Shown here in pieces: positions 3,181-40,338 of a stretch of DNA of 41,196 nucleotides. The notes beneath the pieces are model-generated. The model worked only from the letters and a program-made list of their open reading frames with translations, was not told the DNA's origin and did not search any database. The stretch spans positions 1-41,196 of the forward strand of contig DRQN01000164.1 of the NCBI GenBank assembly GCA_011371455.1, written 5' to 3'. This stretch comes from Gammaproteobacteria bacterium. GTDB taxonomy: Bacteria; Pseudomonadota; Gammaproteobacteria; SZUA-152. Each line of letters begins with the position of its first letter. The first letter of the stretch is position 1. The translations under genes and the position numbers were made by a program.

Positions 3181-3921
3181 TCAGTCGTCGTTCTGGGTCC
3201 AGTGATTCATGCGCGACTGCAGGCGAATCACCGCCTGGCTGTGAATCTGGCAGATGCGCGATTCACTCACGCCGAGGATGGAACCGATCTCGCGCAGGTT
3301 CAGCTCCTCGTCGTAATACAGGGTCATCACCAGCCGTTCGCGCTCCGGCAGTCCGGCGATGGCGTCGGCCAGGCTGCGTTTGAAATCGGCCGACTGCAAT
3401 CCTTCCAGCGGCCCCTGCGTACCCTGACTTAAGCTTTCGCAGTGGCCGTGCGATTCCACGTTCAGCTCGTCATAGCTGAATACGCGGTGACCGCTGGCGT
3501 CCTGCAGCAGGCGGTGATACTCCTGCAGGCTGACGCCCAGCCCCTCGGCGATCTCCTGATCGCGGGCGTCGCGGCCGGTGCGGTTCTCGATGTCCTTCAC
3601 CACCTCGGCCACCATGCGCGCCTTGCGGTGCACCGAGCGCGGCGCCCAGTCGTTCTTGCGGATCTCGTCGAGCATGGCGCCGCGGATGCGGATGCGGGCA
3701 TAGGTCTGGAAACTGGCGCCCTGCGAGGCGTCGTAGTTTCGCAGCGATTCCAGCAGGCCGATCATGCCGGCCTGGATCAGGTCATCCTGCTGCACACTGG
3801 GTGGCAGGCGTGACATCAGGTGGTAGGCGATACGCTTTACCAGGGGAGTGTGTTGGGCGATCTCATCGTTGATGTTGTGGTCGAAGGCCTGTGCCTCCGC
3901 GTACATTGCCGCTCCGCTCAT
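3181..3921 (-). CDS. fliA: Flagellar sigma factor sigma-28 (FliA)
   Basis: 246-aa sigma-70 family protein with region 2 (DLIQAGMIGLLESLRNYD) and a region 4 HTH (LNLREIGSILGVSESRICQIHSQA). Its position after flhF-fleN fits fliA. Confidence 0.95.
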   Translation of the reverse strand: MSGAAMYAEAQAFDHNINDEIAQHTPLVKRIAYHLMSRLPPSVQQDDLIQAGMIGLLESLRNYDASQGASFQTYARIRIRGAMLDEIRKNDWAPRSVHRKARMVAEVVKDIENRTGRDARDQEIAEGLGVSLQEYHRLLQDASGHRVFSYDELNVESHGHCESLSQGTQGPLEGLQSADFKRSLADAIAGLPERERLVMTLYYDEELNLREIGSILGVSESRICQIHSQAVIRLQSRMNHWTQNDD

Positions 3922-3955: not shown

Positions 3956-4834
3956 TTACTGATCCGGGTTCTGCTGACTGGCCAGGATCAGCCGTTCGAC
4001 AAAAAATTCGAGCTGCCCGCCAGCGGATGCCGGTACGGGCCAACTATCGGCTTTGCTGGCCAACTTCTTGAATGCCAGCGCCGACTTGCTTCGGGGGTAG
4101 GCGTCCACCACCGCACGCTGTTTCTGCACCGCCTTGCGCAGATACTCGTCCTCGGGAACCACGCCCATGAAGTCCAGCGCCACGTCCAGATAACGGTCCG
4201 TGACCTTGAGAATCTTGCCGTACAGCGCCCGCCCGTCCTGCACGCTCTGCACCCGGTTGGTGAGCACGCGGAAGCGGTAGATGCCGTATTCGCGGTTGAG
4301 CAGCTTGATCAGCGCGTAGGCATCGGTGATGGAGGCCGGCTCGTCGCACACCACCACCACCACCTCCTGCGCGGCGCGTGAGAAGGTGACCACGTTGTCG
4401 GAGATGCCGGCGGCGGTATCGATGAGCAACACGTCCGGGGTCACGCTGAGTTCACTGAAGGCGCCGATGACACCGGCATGTTCCGCGGTGCTCAGTTCGG
4501 CCATGTTCTGCAGCCCCGAGGAGGCCGGCACGATGCGCAGCCCCTGCGGCCCCATGCAGATCACCTCTTCCAGGGTGCGCTCGCCCTTGAGCACGTGGGA
4601 CAGGTCGTAATTGGTGTGCAGGCCCAGCATCACGTCCACATTGGCCAGGCCCAGGTCGGCGTCCAGCAACAAGACCTCCTTGCCCTGCGCGGCCAGGCTC
4701 ATGCCCAGGTTGACCGAGACGTTGGTCTTGCCGACGCCGCCCTTGCCGCTGGTGATGGCGATGACACGCACCGGCCGGGGGGTGGCGATGCGGCGCAGGC
4801 CGGCCGCTTGATCGATCGTTTCAGCCATGAGCAT
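3956..4834 (-). CDS. fleN: MinD/ParA-type flagellar number regulator FleN (FlhG)
   Basis: 292 aa with a deviant Walker A (ITSGKGGVGKTN) and the LLDADLGLANVDV motif. It overlaps the flhF stop, suggesting translational coupling. Confidence 0.9.
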   Translation of the reverse strand: MLMAETIDQAAGLRRIATPRPVRVIAITSGKGGVGKTNVSVNLGMSLAAQGKEVLLLDADLGLANVDVMLGLHTNYDLSHVLKGERTLEEVICMGPQGLRIVPASSGLQNMAELSTAEHAGVIGAFSELSVTPDVLLIDTAAGISDNVVTFSRAAQEVVVVVCDEPASITDAYALIKLLNREYGIYRFRVLTNRVQSVQDGRALYGKILKVTDRYLDVALDFMGVVPEDEYLRKAVQKQRAVVDAYPRSKSALAFKKLASKADSWPVPASAGGQLEFFVERLILASQQNPDQ

Positions 4835-13995: not shown

Positions 13996-14011
13996 TGCAA
14001 GTGCCATGCCA
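13996..14011 (-). promoter_or_regulatory. Sigma-54 (RpoN) promoter for the fliLMNOPQR-flhB operon
   Basis: The minus strand reads TGGCAT-ggcac-TTGCA against the consensus TGGCAC-N5-TTGCA. It lies about 85 nt upstream of the fliL ATG. Confidence 0.6.
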
Positions 14012-14280
14012 CCCAGCCACGGCGGAGACGGCCCAATGATTTCAAGGTGTTGGAAACCCAGTAATGGGAAATGACCGTTTTTTGACTCCCGGCAAACGGC
14101 GCCATAGCCGGAAACCCGTCGGCCGCATGGAAGGGCCGCGGCGGCCACGGTAGAATGGCCTTGCGGCTTCCACGACGGCCGCAACGGGAATAACGAAAAA
14201 TCCAATAACCCGGCAACCCTGCCCAGTCGTCGATGCACCTCTACGCCGCTGGGCGGTGAAGCACCTCCAGGAGTCATCCG

Positions 14281-15312
14281 ATGTCACACCACTACCCCCT
14301 TCTGGGCCTTGGCCTGGCCCTTGGCCTCTACGCATCCCCTTCCGTCGCGGACTTCGCGCATTTCCAGGCATTACCGCAGGCGGTACAGCAACCGGCGGAC
14401 AATCCCTCCAGCGCGGAAAAAATCCGCCTCGGCAGAAAGCTGTTCTTCGACCCCGCCCTGCTGGGCGCGGACAGTCGCCTGTCCTGCAACAGCTGTCACA
14501 ACCTGGCCACGGCCGGGGTGGATGGCAAGGCGGTCTCTCATGGCCAGCACGGGCGCCACACCTACCGCTCGACGCCAACCCTGTGGAACATCGGTTTTCA
14601 GACCGTGTTGTACTGGGATGGCCGCAGCCCCAGCCTGGAGGCCCAGGCCCTGGATCACCTGCGCGACCCGGTGATTTCAGACAACGCCCATCTGGGCGCC
14701 ATGGTGCAACGGCTGTACGACTCGGCAGATTATCGGCGGGCCTTCGCGGCCGCCTTCCCCGGCGAGGACGCGGTATCCGCCGACAACGTGGCGCGCGCCC
14801 TGGCCAGCTTCCAGCGCAGCCTGCTGAGCCCCGACAGCCCCTTCGACCGCTACATCCGCGGCGACGAAGACGCCCTTTCCGCGCGCGCCAAGCGCGGCAT
14901 GCGCCTGTTCAACGACAGCGGCTGCGTGTCCTGTCACTTCGGCGTCAACTTCGCCGGCCCGGCGCCTGGCCCGGCCATGGGCCCGGGTGACGGCTTCTAC
15001 GAACTGTTCCCCAACCACCTCGGCAGCCAATACGACAGCCAATACCGGCTGGCGGATGATCTGGGACGCTTCGAGGCGACGGGCAATCTATGGGAAAAAC
15101 ATCTGTGGCGGATGCCGATCCTGCGCAACATCGCCGAGACCGCGCCCTATTTTCACAATGGCCGGGTAAAGACCCTGGACGAGGCGGTGCGAGTGATGGC
15201 GAAGACTCAGCTGAGACTGGAATTCAGCGAGGCGGAAGTGCAAGACATCGTGGCCTTTCTGCGAAGCCTGACGGGAAGGATGACGCTGCCGGCGGAGGGG
15301 GCTGGGGACTGA
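14281..15312 (+). CDS. Periplasmic di-haem cytochrome c peroxidase (CCP/MauG family)
   Basis: 343 aa with a signal peptide (LLGLGLALGLYASPSVA) and two CxxCH haem motifs (CNSCH, CVSCH). CCP blocks are present: LGRKLFFDP, WDGR, FDRY, PILRNIAETAPYFHNG. A GGAG RBS sits 7 nt upstream. The stop codon lies inside the first heptamer repeat units. Confidence 0.87.
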   Translation: MSHHYPLLGLGLALGLYASPSVADFAHFQALPQAVQQPADNPSSAEKIRLGRKLFFDPALLGADSRLSCNSCHNLATAGVDGKAVSHGQHGRHTYRSTPTLWNIGFQTVLYWDGRSPSLEAQALDHLRDPVISDNAHLGAMVQRLYDSADYRRAFAAAFPGEDAVSADNVARALASFQRSLLSPDSPFDRYIRGDEDALSARAKRGMRLFNDSGCVSCHFGVNFAGPAPGPAMGPGDGFYELFPNHLGSQYDSQYRLADDLGRFEATGNLWEKHLWRMPILRNIAETAPYFHNGRVKTLDEAVRVMAKTQLRLEFSEAEVQDIVAFLRSLTGRMTLPAEGAGD

Positions 15313-15614
15313 GGACTGAGGACTGAGGACTGGGGACTGAGGACTGAGGACTGAGGACTGAGGACTGAGGACTGAGGACTGAGGACTGAGGACTGAGGGC
15401 TGAGGGCTGAGGGCTGAGGGCTGAGGGCTGAGGGCTGAGGACTGAGGACTGAGGACTGAGGACTGAGGACTGAGGACTGAGGGCTGAGGGCTGAGGGCTG
15501 AGGACTGAGGACTGAGGACTGAGGACTGAGGACTGAGGGCTGAGGACTGAGGGCTGAGGACTGAGGACTGAGGACTGAGGACTGAGGGCTGAGGACTGAG
15601 GACTGAGGACTGAG
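15302..15614. repeat. Heptanucleotide microsatellite block 1: about 44.7 tandem copies of CTGAGGA, with variants CTGAGGG and CTGGGGA
   Basis: I phased the units by hand with no indels. The G-variant units come in runs (6, then 3, then singles). The two CTGGGGA variants are at the 5' end. Confidence 0.97.
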
Positions 15615-15698
15615 CACTCGGCACTCAGCACTCAGCACTCAGCACTCAGCACTCAGCACTCAGCACTCAGCACTCAGCACTCAGCACTCAGCACTCAG
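15615..15698. repeat. Heptanucleotide microsatellite block 2: 12 tandem copies of CACTCAG (the first is CACTCGG)
   Basis: It abuts block 1 directly. The unit is a 5/7 reverse-complement of the block 1 unit (CTGAG pairs with CTCAG). It ends 9 nt before the stop of the convergent STAS gene. Confidence 0.97.
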
Positions 15699-15707
15699 AA
15701 AAAGACA

Positions 15708-16010
15708 TCAGGTCAGGGTGAACATCTTGTCCAGGTTGGAGATGGACAGCACCTTGCGCACCTCCGGGCTGCAGTTCTGCAGACGGATGTCGGCGGACGC
15801 CTCGCCGGCGAATTCGCGCAACAGCAGCAGCATACCCATGGCCGAGCTGTCCATGAAGGTGGTCTGGCTCAGGTCGATGACGAACCGGGTGTCGGGGGGC
15901 AGGTTCCGGTAGGCGTCACGGAACTCTGCATGCAGGCTGAAATCGAAGCGGCCGGCGATGATAATATCCAGCTGATCGCCTTCCTCGGAAAGCCGTGTCG
16001 TAATGCCCAT
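15708..16010 (-). CDS. STAS-domain protein (SpoIIAA-like anti-sigma-factor antagonist fold); last gene of the second che cluster
   Basis: 100 aa with a SpoIIAA-type motif (VIDLSQTTFMDSSAMGMLLLL) that retains the phosphorylatable Ser position. A double AAGGAG RBS lies upstream. Confidence 0.75.
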   Translation of the reverse strand: MGITTRLSEEGDQLDIIIAGRFDFSLHAEFRDAYRNLPPDTRFVIDLSQTTFMDSSAMGMLLLLREFAGEASADIRLQNCSPEVRKVLSISNLDKMFTLT

Positions 16011-16126
16011 ACTCCTTGTCTCCTTGCTGCTGACGGGCCGCTATTTCATGCGACGTATTTTGCTGGCCCCGATATTACCATCATAGCCGCGCTGTCCCGA
16101 GTCGAATTTTCCCCGGGCGCGGGCCG

Positions 16127-17203
16127 TCAGCCTTTCAAGCGACGCAGAATGTGCTGCGGAATCCTGTTCAGCGAAAGCACGTCGTCCACGCAACCCAGCT
16201 TGACCGCCTCGCCCGGCATGCCCCACACCACGCTGCTCTTTTCGTCCTGGGCGATGGTTGGCGCGCCGGCCTCCTTCATTTCCAGCATGCCCCGCGCACC
16301 GTCGTCGCCCATGCCGGTCAGCAGCACGGCCATGGCGTTCGAGCCCACGTTCTGCGCCACCGAGCGGAACAGCACGTCCACCGAGGGTTTGTGCCGGTTG
16401 ACCGGCGGCCCGTCACTGAGCCGGCAGATGTAACGCGCGCCGTCCCGCTCCACCATCAGGTGCTGGCTGCCGGGGGCGATATAGGCATGACCGGTGACGA
16501 TCTGCTGCCCGTCCTCGGCCTCGCACACCGTCATCGCCGATATACCGTCCATGCGTCTGGCAAAGGGGGCGCTGAAGGCCTCGGGGATGTGCTGGGTGAT
16601 CACCGTCCCCGGGGTATCCGCCGGCAGGTGCATGAGCACTTCCTTGATGGCCTCGGTGCCGCCGGTGGAGGCGCCGATGGCGAGGATGCGATCGGTGGTG
16701 CGGAAATGGTGCGCCGGCGCCGCTTTACCGAGCACCGCATCGGCCGTGCGCCGCTCCGCCACCTCGCCGGCAGCGGACGGATTGCGCGCCAGGGCCTGCA
16801 CCCGCGCGCCGGCCGCCGTGCGCACCTTGGTGACGATCTCTTCGGCATAGTCGTCCAGGGTATGGGCGATGTCCGTCTTGGGCTTGGAAACGAAATCCAC
16901 CGCACCCAGTTCCAGCGCCTGAAAGGTGATATCCGCGCCCTTCTCGGTGAGGGTCGAGACCATCACCACCGGCATCGGGCGCAGGCGCATGAGATTGCGC
17001 AGGAAGGTGACGCCGTCCATGCGCGGCATCTCCACATCCAGGGTCAGCACGTCCGGGTTCAGCGACTTGATGCGCTCGCGCGCCACATAGGGATCCTGCG
17101 CGGTGCCGACCACCTCGATATCCGGGGCGGAATTCAGCATCTCGGTCAGCATCTGCCGCACCAGGGCGGAGTCGTCGACGATCAGAACCTTGATCTTTTT
17201 CAT
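16127..17203 (-). CDS. cheB: Chemotaxis methylesterase/deamidase CheB (receiver plus CheB_methylest domains)
   Basis: 358 aa with receiver motifs ([26 protein letters not shown]) and catalytic-domain blocks ([16 protein letters not shown]). Confidence 0.93.
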
Positions 17204-18769: not shown

Positions 18770-21298
18770 TCAGAATTCTTCCCACTCACCGTCGTCATCC
18801 ACCGCTGGACGTGGAGCCGGACGGGAAACCGCCGCGGGCCTCGCCGCTGGCCGGGGAGCGGGCGCGGGAGGGCTCTCCGCCTGCGGCTGCGGGGCCGGTG
18901 TGCGCGGCGCCGGCTGATGGCTCTCGTCGAGGCGGAAGAAGGCCATGCGCTGACTCATGTCGCGCGCCTGGTCGTCGAGGGACTCGGCGGCGGCCGCGGC
19001 CTCTTCCACCAGCGCCGCATTCTGCTGGGTCACCTCATCGAGCTGGGTGATGGCCTTGTTGATCTGCTCGATACCGATGGACTGCTCCTGGCTGGCGGCG
19101 GCGATCTCGGCGACGATGTCGCTGACCTTTTTCACCGAACCAACAATTTCCGTTAGCGTCTCGCCGGAGCGGTCCACCAGCTTGCTGCCCTCACCGACCT
19201 TTTCCACGCTGTCACTGATCAGCGACTTGATTTCCTTCGCCGCCGAGGCGCTGCGCTGGGCCAGGTTACGCACTTCGGAGGCCACCACCGCGAAGCCCCG
19301 GCCCTGCTCACCGGCGCGCGCCGCCTCCACCGCCGCATTCAGCGCCAGCAGGTTGGTCTGAAAGGCGATCTCGTCGATGACGCCGATGATGTCGGCAATC
19401 TTCTTGCTCGAACTGTTGATCTCGGCCATGGCATCCACTGCCTGTTGCACCACGCTGCCGCCCTGCTCCGCCTGGTCGCGAGCGCCATTGGCCAGTTGAT
19501 TGGCCTGACGCGCGTTGTCGGCGTTCTGCTTCACCGTCGAGGTCAGCTGCTCCATGCTGGAGGCGGTCTCCTCCAGCGAGGAAGCCTGTTCCTCGGTGCG
19601 CTGACTGAGGTCGGTATTGCCCTGGGATATCTCGCTGGCCGCCGACGTAATGCTCTCGGTGGCGACACGAATGCCGCCCACGGTCTCTTGCAGATTCTTG
19701 ACCGAGGTATTGACCGCATCACTCAACACCGCGAACTCACCCTGATAGTCACTACGGGCCAGTTGCGTCAGATCGCCCTCGGCGAGGCGGGTCATGACGC
19801 TGGAGATATCAGTGATCGGTTCGACGATGGCGTCCAACATGCTGTTTATGCCTTCGCCGAGGGTGCGGATGAAGCCTTGATAGCTCTCCACGTCCAGCCG
19901 CTGACCCAGATCGCCACGGGCGGCGGCGGCAATCATCTCCGCCAGCGCCCGTTCGGCCGCCTTCTGCTCGGTGATGTCGCGCCACTCCACCATATTGCCC
20001 ATGTACTTGCCCTGACCGTCGAGCACCGCCGTGGCATTGACCTCGAATTCCAGGTCCGCCACCTTGATCTCGGCCCTGGCCGGCAGGCGCGAGGGGTCAC
20101 CCAGCAGGGCTCGCTGATGAGCGGGGTTCTTGTGGAACATGTCGATATTCTTGCCCACCAGATTGTGCGCATCGAAACCGGGGAAGCGTTCGCGCAGCAC
20201 CTCCTGACGCGCCGCCATCATCTTTACCACCGCCGGATTGACGTAGGTGATATTGAGATCTTCGTCACACAGCATGAGATTGGACTGGGCGCCATCGATG
20301 GCCGACTGCAGGCGCTCCACCTCACGCGCCGCTTTGCGTTCCTCGGTAACGTCTTTCCACTGCACGGCATAGCCCAGGTGGCGGCCGCTGGCGTCGGTGA
20401 GGGGGCGGGTCTGGTGTTCGAAGATGAACCGACCGGGGGTGATCTCGCCGTGGCGCACGTCGTCCGGACCCATGGCGTGGAGGATGCGTTTAATCGCCTC
20501 GGGGTCCTTGTGATAACGATGGATGCTGCCACCCACCACCGAGTCGACGCTGAAGCCGGGCAGATACTGGGCCAGCTCATCTTCCACCGAGGTCAGGGTA
20601 TCGCGCGCCTGTTTGTTGATAAAAACAATATTCTCGTCAGCGTCGGCGATCATGATATTGATGGGCGAATGTTCGAGGATCGAATACATCGCTTCCAGGC
20701 TGTTGAGGGCCTCGCTCGTGCCCATCACCGATTCCATTGCTTTCTTGCTTGCTGCCATCGTCTTCTCCTCCAGGACTTCGTCCGCCGACAGCATGGTGGC
20801 CGCCACGGTATTCAATGCATCACGCCAGGCACCCGCAACCTCATCGGTCCACAGATCACCGGCAAACTCCGCCATCACGTCGAGCAGCGTCTCCGCCACC
20901 GCCGTGTAGTGTTCTCTTTTCGCCCCATAGGCATGGTGTTTTTCACCCAGGCCCAGCAGGGCCTTGCGCAGCTGCGCCGGCTTGCGCAGGCTGTTGACCA
21001 CCAGCTGCAGGGCCGCCAGCAGCTTTTTCTGCTGCTGCGCCGGATCGGCATTGGCGAACAAGGGCCGCACCTCGGGGAAACGTACGAACAATTCTTCGTA
21101 AAAGCGCGCCACCAGGGCCTCGCCCTGCGGCGCCAGGGCGGCAAAGGTCTCTTCCAGCAGGGCAACCGCAAGGCCGTCGCTCTTACGCCGCCGGCGACGA
21201 GGTGCAGACTTCTTCTCCACCAGCGGCTCGACCGGCGCCTCCTCCTTCATCCAGGCCAGCGGGTCAGCCCCTATGGGTGATTTCTTGCGTGTTGCCAT
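18770..21298 (-). CDS. Soluble methyl-accepting chemotaxis protein: basic N-terminal peptide, globin, PAS, PAS, HAMP, MA domain, Pro-rich tether and C-terminal EWEEF pentapeptide (Aer2/McpB-like position)
   Basis: 842 aa with no hydrophobic TM-length segment. The globin region [16 protein letters not shown]...[10 protein letters not shown] resembles Vitreoscilla Hb (FYKNLFAKHPEVRPLF...). Two PAS-like modules carry SIHRYHKDP and [13 protein letters not shown]. The MA signalling core is [35 protein letters not shown]. The C-terminus reads ...[12 protein letters not shown]. Confidence 0.92.
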
Positions 21299-21341: not shown

Positions 21342-21479
21342 TTTGCCACTGAGACACAGAGGACACAGAGCAGAAAATCCCATGAGAAGATACGGGACAC
21401 TTGTGTCATCGGATGCGAGAAAAACATCGGCACTTTATCCATAAGTTTTTCTCCGTGTCCTCTGTGTCTCTGTGGCAAA
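21342..21479. repeat. 138-bp inverted-repeat (MITE/REP-like) element, family 'TTTGCCACAGAG', copy 1
   Basis: The 29-nt arms TTTGCCACTGAGACACAGAGGACACAGAG (21342-21370) and CTCCGTGTCCTCTGTGTCTCTGTGGCAAA (21451-21479) are complementary at 27/29 positions. The element fills the parA-like/MCP intergenic gap. Confidence 0.7.
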
Positions 21480-39675: not shown

Positions 39676-40209
39676 TCATCCCGAATCCGTGGGTTTGGAA
39701 TCCGGTGCCGACTCGGGCAACACGCCCTCGGTGATCCACACCCGCGTCCCCACCGGCGCCAGGCCGAACAGCTCGACGACATCGCGGTTGCGCATCTTCA
39801 CACAGCCATGGGAACCGGGCCGGCCCAGCACGTCGTCGTCGGGACAGCCATGAATATAGACATAGCGGCGCTGGGTATCCACCGCGCCGAGGCGGTTGCG
39901 CCCCGGCTCCAGGCCGCACAGCCAGAGAATGCGGGTGAGAATCCAGTCTCGTTGGGGATGCCGGGCGCGCAGCGCCGGGGTATAGATCTCGCCGCTGGGG
40001 CGGCGGCCGACGAACACCGCGCCGAGCGGCGCGCCCTCACCGATCCTGGCGCGGATGCGGTGCCAGCCGCGCGGCGTACACTCACTGCCCTGCCGTTCGC
40101 CGGGGCCGTTGGCCGCCGTGGACACCGCCACATCCATCAACACACGCCCGCCCTCGCGCAACTGCAGGCGCTGTTCGGCAATGCTGACCAGGATCACTCT
40201 TTCCGCCAT
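39676..40209 (-). CDS. L,D-transpeptidase (YkuD domain)
   Basis: 177 aa with the catalytic motif IHGCP...GRPGSHGCVKMRN. Confidence 0.8.
   Translation of the reverse strand: MAERVILVSIAEQRLQLREGGRVLMDVAVSTAANGPGERQGSECTPRGWHRIRARIGEGAPLGAVFVGRRPSGEIYTPALRARHPQRDWILTRILWLCGLEPGRNRLGAVDTQRRYVYIHGCPDDDVLGRPGSHGCVKMRNRDVVELFGLAPVGTRVWITEGVLPESAPDSKPTDSG
39680..39698. repeat. Degenerate REP-like copy (CCCGAATCCGTGGGTTTGG)
   Basis: About 16/19 identity to the REP core. It overlaps the last codons of the L,D-transpeptidase gene. Confidence 0.5.
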
Positions 40210-40230: not shown

Positions 40231-40338
40231 TTTGCCACAGAGGCACAGAGGCACAGAGCACACAGAGGAAAATATTGTGGTTTACTCTGACCTGAATCCG
40301 TGGGTTCAGGCCTGAGTTCTCTGTGCCTCTGTGGCAAA
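40231..40338. repeat. 108-bp inverted-repeat element, family 'TTTGCCACAGAG', copy 2, with a nested REP palindrome (40291-40310)
   Basis: Perfect 20-bp arms: TTTGCCACAGAGGCACAGAG (40231-40250) and CTCTGTGCCTCTGTGGCAAA (40319-40338). An exact CCTGAATCCGTGGGTTCAGG lies between them. Confidence 0.75.

Follow-up and report, generated by a model that had tools for sequence, protein, structure and literature searches.

We analyzed a heptanucleotide tandem repeat that lies between two convergent genes in a stretch of 41,196 nucleotides (contig DRQN01000164.1 of assembly GCA_011371455.1; hereafter the window, meaning the whole stretch). The host is an uncultured gammaproteobacterial sulfur oxidizer of hydrothermal vents. 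On the plus strand, the gene at 14281..15312 encodes a di-haem cytochrome c peroxidase (ccp; Pfam PF03150, 2e-47). The convergent gene, on the minus strand at 15708..16010, encodes a STAS-domain protein as judged from Pfam matches (PF13466/PF01740) and gene order, and it is the last member of a minus-strand che cluster (MCP-CheR-CheD-CheB-STAS). Past the STAS gene lie CheB, CheD, CheR and a globin-PAS-HAMP-MCP gene, and FliL and FliM are found on the other side.

Tandem Repeats Finder (TRF) reported two period-7 repeats in the spacer between ccp and the STAS gene, the first at 15302-15618 (45.3 copies, 95% matches) and the second at 15609-15698 (12.9 copies, 96% matches). When 15302-15700 was parsed in a single register, 57 heptamer units were obtained: 30 CTGAGGA, 12 CTGAGGG, 2 CTGGGGA, 1 CTGAGCA, 1 CTCGGCA, 10 CTCAGCA and 1 CTCAGAA. 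An earlier inspection of the letters alone (the sequence-only reading) had described a heptamer array spanning the gap between the convergent genes, and both TRF and the unit parse agree. As it had also stated, the ccp stop codon (TGA, 15310-15312) falls inside unit 2, units 1 and 2 supplying the final three codons and the stop, and the STAS stop lies 9 nt past position 15698. The intervening unique 9-nt linker, AAAAAGACA (15699..15707), presents an A-run on the plus strand and a U-run on the minus strand, where it is located upstream of the potential hairpin discussed below.

Block 1 (15302..15609, plus strand), delimited by TRF, unit parse and base composition, holds 44 units, namely all copies of CTGAGGA, CTGAGGG and CTGGGGA. 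Its plus strand is the G-rich strand (47% G) and at the same time the sense strand of ccp. The two CTGGGGA units are units 1 and 5 of the array, and CTGAGGG units form runs of six and of three, as noted before. A regex scan showed that the run of six (15397..15434, plus strand), read as (GGGCTGA)n, is the array's one canonical G-quadruplex motif (G3N4) and the only place where a tract of at least three G occurs in four or more consecutive units. Units 45 and 46 (CTGAGCA and CTCGGCA, 15610..15623, plus strand in the unit parse) are in-phase, single-step intermediates linking the units of block 1 to those of block 2. Block 2 (15624..15700, plus strand; TRF, unit parse and folding) consists of ten CTCAGCA and a terminal CTCAGAA, the same repeat as in the CACTCAG register; it is 43% C, and 5-6 of the 7 nt in each unit pair with block-1 units. 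The sequence-only reading had taken block 2 for a partial reverse complement of block 1. The complementarity between CTGAG and CTCAG is real, but a separate inverted copy is not what lies there: the block 2 unit differs from the block 1 unit by two in-phase substitutions, at positions 3 and 6, and the blocks form one continuous array in one phase, intermediates included. The reverse-complement relation arises because the CTNAG core is near-palindromic, not through inverted duplication. The array heptamers are practically lacking in the rest of the window, and no second array was found there.

Exact STAS and FliL proteins were each found on more than 20 contigs from hydrothermal-vent metagenomes and metagenome-assembled genomes (MAGs). 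More than 20 independent contigs or MAGs carry an array at the same site, with flanks 98-100% identical to those of the window and with differing alleles. Most short-read contigs break off after the first few units, and a gap of 100 N interrupts one MAG at this position. In the notation used here, A stands for CTGAGGA, G for CTGAGGG, W for CTGGGGA, x for CTGAGCA, y for CTCGGCA, B for CTCAGCA, b for CTCAGAA and u for CTGAGTG, and a number gives consecutive units. The spanned window allele reads W A3 W A8 G6 A6 G3 A5 G A G A4 G A3 x y B10 b. Two other alleles are fully spanned, one of 7 units (A G A B3 b, contig L133) and one of 8 units (A A B5 b, L134). Partial alleles read ..W A2 G3 A x y B5 b (L003), ..A u A u u A G5 A G A G A4 G3 x y B7 b (L008), W A5 x y B4.. 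(L135) and A G A B7.. (L137); they show 5, 7 or 10 block-2 units and differing orders of A and G. The x y transition pair is present in the type-A alleles L002, L003, L008 and L135, and the allele sequences suggest that the ccp product ends in AGD* in type-A alleles and in TED* in type-B alleles. The array is a hypervariable variable-number tandem repeat (VNTR) of 7 to 57 units in which the order of units changes as well. Copy-number polymorphism, which the sequence-only reading had proposed to look for, is therefore present across same-species assemblies with near-identical flanks, and the slippage hot-spot that it had suspected is reflected in polymorphism of unit number and order seen directly. 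One contig end stands apart: at 1019-1260 of L008 (ERZ27262687 k141_252351), interleaved CCTCAGC/ACTCAGC/ACTCAGT units are followed by CACTCCGGCCA, which has no match to the ccp end and may be a variant junction or an assembly error.

When metagenomes were scanned for ccp relatives, the convergent ccp/STAS pair proved to be kept down to about 53% ccp identity. The spacer measures 50 to 349 nt among relatives (L145-L163) and about 1.3 kb in L157. In L145 (ccp 86%), five block-2-type units (GCACTAA, three GCACTCA and GCACTAG) lie beside the STAS stop, with no other repeat in the spacer. In L148 (ccp 65%), (GCTGAGT)5(GCTAAGT)11 abuts the ccp stop and is followed by palindromes resembling repetitive extragenic palindromic (REP) elements. 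The L146 spacer and the partial L144 spacer hold an inverted-repeat element with CACAGAG arms that resembles a miniature inverted-repeat transposable element (MITE), and a similar CACAGAG-arm element follows ccp in L151, where no STAS gene was seen. The L153 spacer has only a short GC-rich hairpin, and the similarly short 65-nt spacer of L154 probably does too. No specific spacer content is conserved among these orthologous ccp/STAS spacers. From this comparison, block-2-type units are probably the older repeat at the site. The block-1 expansion is specific to the species of the window, and the large expansion to its lineage.

The MITE/REP-like family, about 100-130 nt long, is also represented in the window at 21347-21476 and 40234-40338, with copies in relatives at L146 ~4075-4205, L144 ~3740-3803 and L151 ~2190-2290. 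Its arms are built of CACAGAG(G) octamer repeats, CCACAGAGGCACAGAGGACACAGAG ... CTCCGTGTCCTCTGTGTCTCTGTGGC, followed by GGCAAACAyAACAA. Both window copies are located 25-49 nt upstream of minus-strand starts (MCP at 21298 and an open reading frame (ORF) at 40209), and in sister species the element takes the place of the heptamer array in the ccp-STAS spacer. In L148, the array at the ccp stop, the palindromes and a second array are spread over 1589-1701, 1720-1900 and 3441-3500. The REP-like palindromes include GCGTGCGCCACGCGCACG and CTCCCACGC..GCGTGGGAG, accompanied by repeated TTTGCGTCCTCTGCG motifs, and the second heptamer array, (CCTTAAC)n, lies about 1.8 kb from the one at the ccp stop.

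Similar arrays are widespread in other genomes. (CTGAGGR)4 was found at no fewer than 119 places in species-representative genomes, where our own calculation gives a chance expectation of about 0.004. Among the matches listed, hosts include cyanobacteria, Chloroflexia, Acidobacteriota, Gemmatimonadota, Verrucomicrobiota, Ectothiorhodospiraceae, Thiohalocapsa, Thiobacillus and Zetaproteobacteria, several loci occur in some genomes, and 26% of arrays sit at contig ends. None of these listed loci, at least 119 in number, has the flanks of the window array, and a crude ORF-based survey of them gave no sign that one gene arrangement is favored (42 tandem, 23 divergent, 20 convergent). Their flanks frequently hold period-7 arrays of many other units, and neighboring blocks that differ by 1-2 substitutions, mutated and re-expanded, are common among them. 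In viral contigs, CTGAGGR arrays accounted for 14 stretches versus 15 and 7 for composition-matched scrambled heptamers. The notion of CTGAGGR as a special unit was rejected, given that scrambled heptamers are about equally frequent and unrelated units occupy the flanks; what stands out is the period of 7, not the unit. The window array was the longest among about 200 CTGAGGR-class arrays inspected, the next longest measuring 266 nt. Some genomes are dense in period-7 arrays, with 8-10 of them within 8 kb (L093, L013, L037 and L078) and with ACGATGG, ACGCATC, AAACGTG and AACCCTG among their units; these genomes, rich in long simple sequence repeats (LSSRs), belong to Chloroflexia, cyanobacteria, Verrucomicrobiota and Syntrophobacteraceae.

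Among known heptamer repeats, the cyanobacterial short tandemly repeated repetitive (STRR) sequences STRR1, STRR2 and STRR3 have the units CCCCAGT, TTGGTCA and CAACAGT. Like STRR sequences, the window array is made of tandem heptamers in adjoining blocks of different units, and its main unit, CCTCAGT when reverse-complemented and rotated, is one substitution away from CCCCAGT. The minor unit CTGGGGA is the reverse complement of rotated CCCCAGT and also a rotation of the Nostoc heptamer GGGGACT, so that the STRR-like character noticed in the sequence-only reading stands at the level of sequence. Nevertheless, only 2 of the 57 units equal reverse-complemented, rotated STRR1 and the main units are 1-2 bases off; the array further differs from STRR sequences in its gammaproteobacterial host. 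As to dispersed copies, which are typical of STRR, the 41 kb held this one array, and a second site may lie beside DsrC (L010/L132). STRR heptanucleotides of Calothrix PCC 7601 are credited to Mazel et al. 1990 as cited in PMC4692102. Finding an STRR-like repeat in a proteobacterium had been considered unexpected; this view is not supported, as heptameric simple sequence repeats (SSRs) are known in Xanthomonas, Burkholderia and Beggiatoaceae (PMC4692102, PMC4679880) and the unit occurs in many phyla.

The Xanthomonas GGGAATC and Nostoc GGGGA(C/T)T repeats are dispersed G-rich heptamers that are mostly intergenic (Rehm et al. 2015, PMC4692102). Their G-rich strand is often the sense strand, with the repeat close to a stop codon (0-50 bp) or running across it; 16% are located between convergent ORFs, and they occur by the hundreds per genome in arrays of 2-26 units (4 preferred) that vary between close relatives (PMC4692102). 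The window array shares the 7-nt unit, the G-rich strand and the non-coding, intergenic location on the sense strand, overlapping a stop codon (the ccp TGA in unit 2) between convergent ORFs. Its number and sequence of units likewise vary among close relatives, and its CTGGGGA and CTGAGGG units carry G3-4 tracts. In contrast to the repeats of Rehm et al., it is a single array in 41 kb, has 57 units, most of them with GG only, and has an attached C-rich, partly complementary second block. TAACTGA repeats, described in marine Beggiatoaceae, cyanobacteria and Bacteroidetes (MacGregor 2015, PMC4679880), are mostly present in 2-6 copies just upstream of start codons, where translational regulation was proposed, and reach 43 copies in some cyanobacteria and Bacteroidetes (PMC4679880). 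Here the likeness consists of heptamer arrays in vent or seep sulfur-oxidizing gammaproteobacteria, stops in all "forward" frames with open "reverse" frames, patchy distribution across phyla, and long arrays mixed with other heptamers in some genomes, while the window array differs in its unit and in its position at two 3' ends. Finally, heptanucleotides are the most abundant class of long SSRs in many prokaryotes, for which slippage was proposed (Mrazek 2007, as reported in PMC4679880). With LSSR/VNTR loci the window array has in common a unit of 5-11 nt, a high-GC free-living host and length polymorphism by slippage (Mrazek, Guo & Shah 2007, as reported in PMC4679880). Its units run head to tail, free of spacers and far beyond chance, and their number is polymorphic among close strains; it does not differ from such loci in kind and is extreme in length. 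The feature thus belongs to a known class of bacterial heptamer repeats and is unusual mainly in how long it is.

Taken together, we regard the feature as probably a slippage-generated, hypervariable heptameric SSR/VNTR, STRR-like or of the type described by Rehm et al., residing in a 3'-3' spacer that is permissive of such changes. Slipped-strand mispairing, possibly together with unequal recombination, would have expanded a short proto-repeat that lay beside the STAS stop and had CTCAG/CTGAG as its core. Point mutations in single units (CTCAGCA <-> CTGAGCA <-> CTGAGGA <-> CTGAGGG) would then have been amplified locally, giving rise to blocks and runs while one register was kept, and in the lineage of the window block 1 would have ballooned to 44 units. 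Such a site would be tolerant, in that it holds the ends of both genes and lacks a promoter, the ccp stop sits in unit 2 and the plus-strand frames of block 1 run into TGA; unit number could therefore drift freely. Most likely the hairpin, the G-quadruplex-capable stretch and the C-rich antisense RNA arose as by-products and not as selected functions.

Several points weigh against this interpretation. Every allele, the shortest included, keeps both unit types and with them a small predicted hairpin, which may have a structural role at mRNA 3' ends. The neutrality of the drift is something we infer. The count of 57 units comes from the assembly of the window alone, L133 and L134 are the only gap-free, fully spanned alleles besides it, and some of the allele diversity stems from short-read metagenomes, which can collapse repeats. 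Moreover, one contig (L010/L132) joins ccp and array units to a terminator and DsrC.

The alternative that survives best, though we consider it unlikely, is that the two blocks make up a selected RNA hairpin, which would either terminate transcription from both sides in a non-canonical manner or, like a REP element, protect the 3' ends of the ccp and che-operon mRNAs. In the fold prediction proposed by the sequence-only reading, DNA 15530-15698 formed 12 short helices (-56.7 kcal/mol, z = -10.2), so that the fold-back between blocks it had envisaged is indeed predicted in silico. For RNA of the whole array, the plus strand gave z = -15.6 and the minus strand z = -9.4. Even the alleles of 7-8 units are predicted to fold, into a small interrupted hairpin of three stacked 5-6-bp helices (z = -2.4 to -3.4), and a promoter/terminator scan of 14000-17000 returned nothing within the spacer (15300-15710), no other terminator included. 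On the other hand, the plus strand has AAAAAGA after the hairpin and the minus strand has U5 before the hairpin and CCCCUCC after it; U-tracts are on the wrong side for either direction, neither strand having one 3' of the hairpin, which does not fit an intrinsic terminator. The array does resemble Rho-independent bidirectional terminators in its hairpin potential and its place between convergent stops, but its A- and U-tracts are misplaced, its helix is broken every 5-6 bp and the structure is not conserved in orthologous spacers (L145, L146, L148, the partial L144 and L153). Pairing is absent in L148 and in L145, whose spacer has no fold on the ccp-sense strand (z = +0.7), and other relatives hold unrelated content. 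In addition, 44 block-1 units are far beyond the pairing capacity of 11 block-2 units, and the organism may use textbook A6-hairpin-T6 terminators if the DsrC flank of L132 is its own. With no 3' U-tract, a negative scan and no pairing in the spacers of sister species, the bidirectional terminator suggested by the sequence-only reading found no support; a modest contribution to the stability of 3' ends is conceivable.

An assembly artefact behind the long allele, or behind its exact length, is improbable; in that case the array of this strain would be shorter, reordered or a chimeric join. Short-read assemblies do break or collapse at repeats, and the contigs that stop in the array and the MAG with its N-gap illustrate this behavior; in the same sample, L010 joins ccp-side units to an unrelated DsrC flank. 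However, owing to the pattern of variant units, each k-mer that overlaps the array occurs only once at k >= 77 (perfect runs reach 78 and 65 nt at most), so that 150-nt reads assembled with 127-mers are able to resolve it. Starting from the STAS side, the independent contig L002 agrees with the array over 285 nt without a mismatch, and L010, L136 and L139 match its ccp side; L002 and L010 overlap, tiling the array from both sides. Both the fully spanned alleles and the relatives confirm that ccp and the STAS gene are adjacent. The array itself is real.

The DsrC contig deserves separate mention. At L010 4017-4215 / L132 1920-2116 (SRR4453772 k127_1098249), ccp is followed by 21 block-1 units (W A3 W A8 G3 A G4); block 2 and STAS are missing, and the units run straight into a classic A6-hairpin-T6 terminator and DsrC. 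The same metagenome also holds a contig that matches the window at 100% identity. The window does not contain the DsrC flank. DsrC relatives (90-92%) have a lipid-A acyltransferase after DsrC and no CTGAGG array at the site, and the terminator pattern of the flank was not found in JGI metagenomes. The contig could be a chimeric join via a second array, a second array site or a true rearrangement.

A regulatory variant in which unit number tunes convergent transcription, through a length-dependent hairpin, a G-quadruplex or a C-rich rut-like RNA that affects termination and the stability of 3' ends, with arrays elsewhere acting as recombination substrates, strikes us as quite improbable. If it were true, the contig on which ccp, 21 units, a terminator and DsrC are joined could be one such chromosome rearrangement, and CTNAG-core arrays, present in more than 100 genomes of many phyla, would constitute a recurrent, selectable "tunable spacer" element.

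Still more doubtful is a G-quadruplex regulatory repeat analogous to those of Rehm et al., in which G-quadruplex DNA or RNA at the ccp 3' end would affect transcription, translation termination or local genome stability. The G-rich sense strand overlapping a stop is the preferred placement of GGGAATC and GGGGAYT (PMC4692102), and the six successive GGGCTGA units provide a canonical motif, but 30 of the 44 block-1 units have GG only and no genome-wide family was seen in 41 kb. Short alleles contain one CTGAGGG unit or none, meaning that quadruplex capacity is not conserved within the species.

Phase variation was also considered, since copy number is highly variable and the sequence-only reading had pointed to contingency loci. 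The hmw promoters of Haemophilus influenzae carry 7-bp repeats, and heptanucleotide repeats were reportedly treated among phase-variable SSRs in one study of this species. A contingency locus, in which unit number switches a gene on or off, is nevertheless very hard to reconcile with the arrangement found here. Since the array marks the end of both genes and unit 2 holds the ccp stop in a fixed place, unit changes alter no reading frame and no promoter spacing; according to the scan neither strand has a downstream gene or promoter, and the ORFs encoded by the repeat are not conserved.

With respect to reading frames, the sequence-only reading had all plus-strand frames closed and all minus-strand frames open. 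This is correct across block 1, where TGA closes every plus-strand frame, and is reversed in block 2, where the minus strand is (GCTGAGT)n with TGA in all three frames and the plus-strand frames are open. Translation of the minus strand of block 1 into a protein rich in Ser and Pro, made of the (SVLSPQS)n peptide given in the sequence-only reading, has practically nothing to recommend it: minus-strand ORFs of 135-178 aa do cross block 1 in its three open frames, but they start within the repeat at GTG codons that the repeat itself makes, are stopped by block 2, run antisense into ccp, shift frame at each unit change (period 7), are gone in the alleles of 7-8 units, and have as their sole Pfam match HV_Gp350_C-term at 22-30 bits, a low-complexity artefact. 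Repeat ORFs in 15088-15638 (minus strand) scored 26.8 and 30.5 bits in this family versus a gathering cut-off of 26.4. The match is a compositional false positive that automatic annotation could spread.

Elsewhere in the window, the che cluster that ends in the STAS gene is headed by a globin-coupled sensor at 18770-21298 (minus strand), an 842-aa chemoreceptor with an N-terminal globin domain and with PAS, HAMP and MCP signaling domains. TRF also reported a 129-nt tandem duplication at 1264-1496 (1.8 copies, 77% matches), which may be a repetitive coding region and adjoins an 18-nt repeat at 1154-1215. No family was detected in an Rfam scan of the whole window.

The ccp-STAS array reveals no new mechanism or regulatory switch. 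It represents an extreme case, with 57 units compared to maxima of 26 (PMC4692102) and 43 (PMC4679880), and its alleles together with the sister species show how an array grows by mutation and re-expansion in one register. When metagenomes of this population are assembled, it is known to break contigs, leave N-gaps and possibly create chimeric joins. At the same time, it offers a ready-made VNTR marker of high discriminating power with which strains of an uncultured vent gammaproteobacterium can be tracked, and it extends a little-studied class of heptameric repeats to another lineage.

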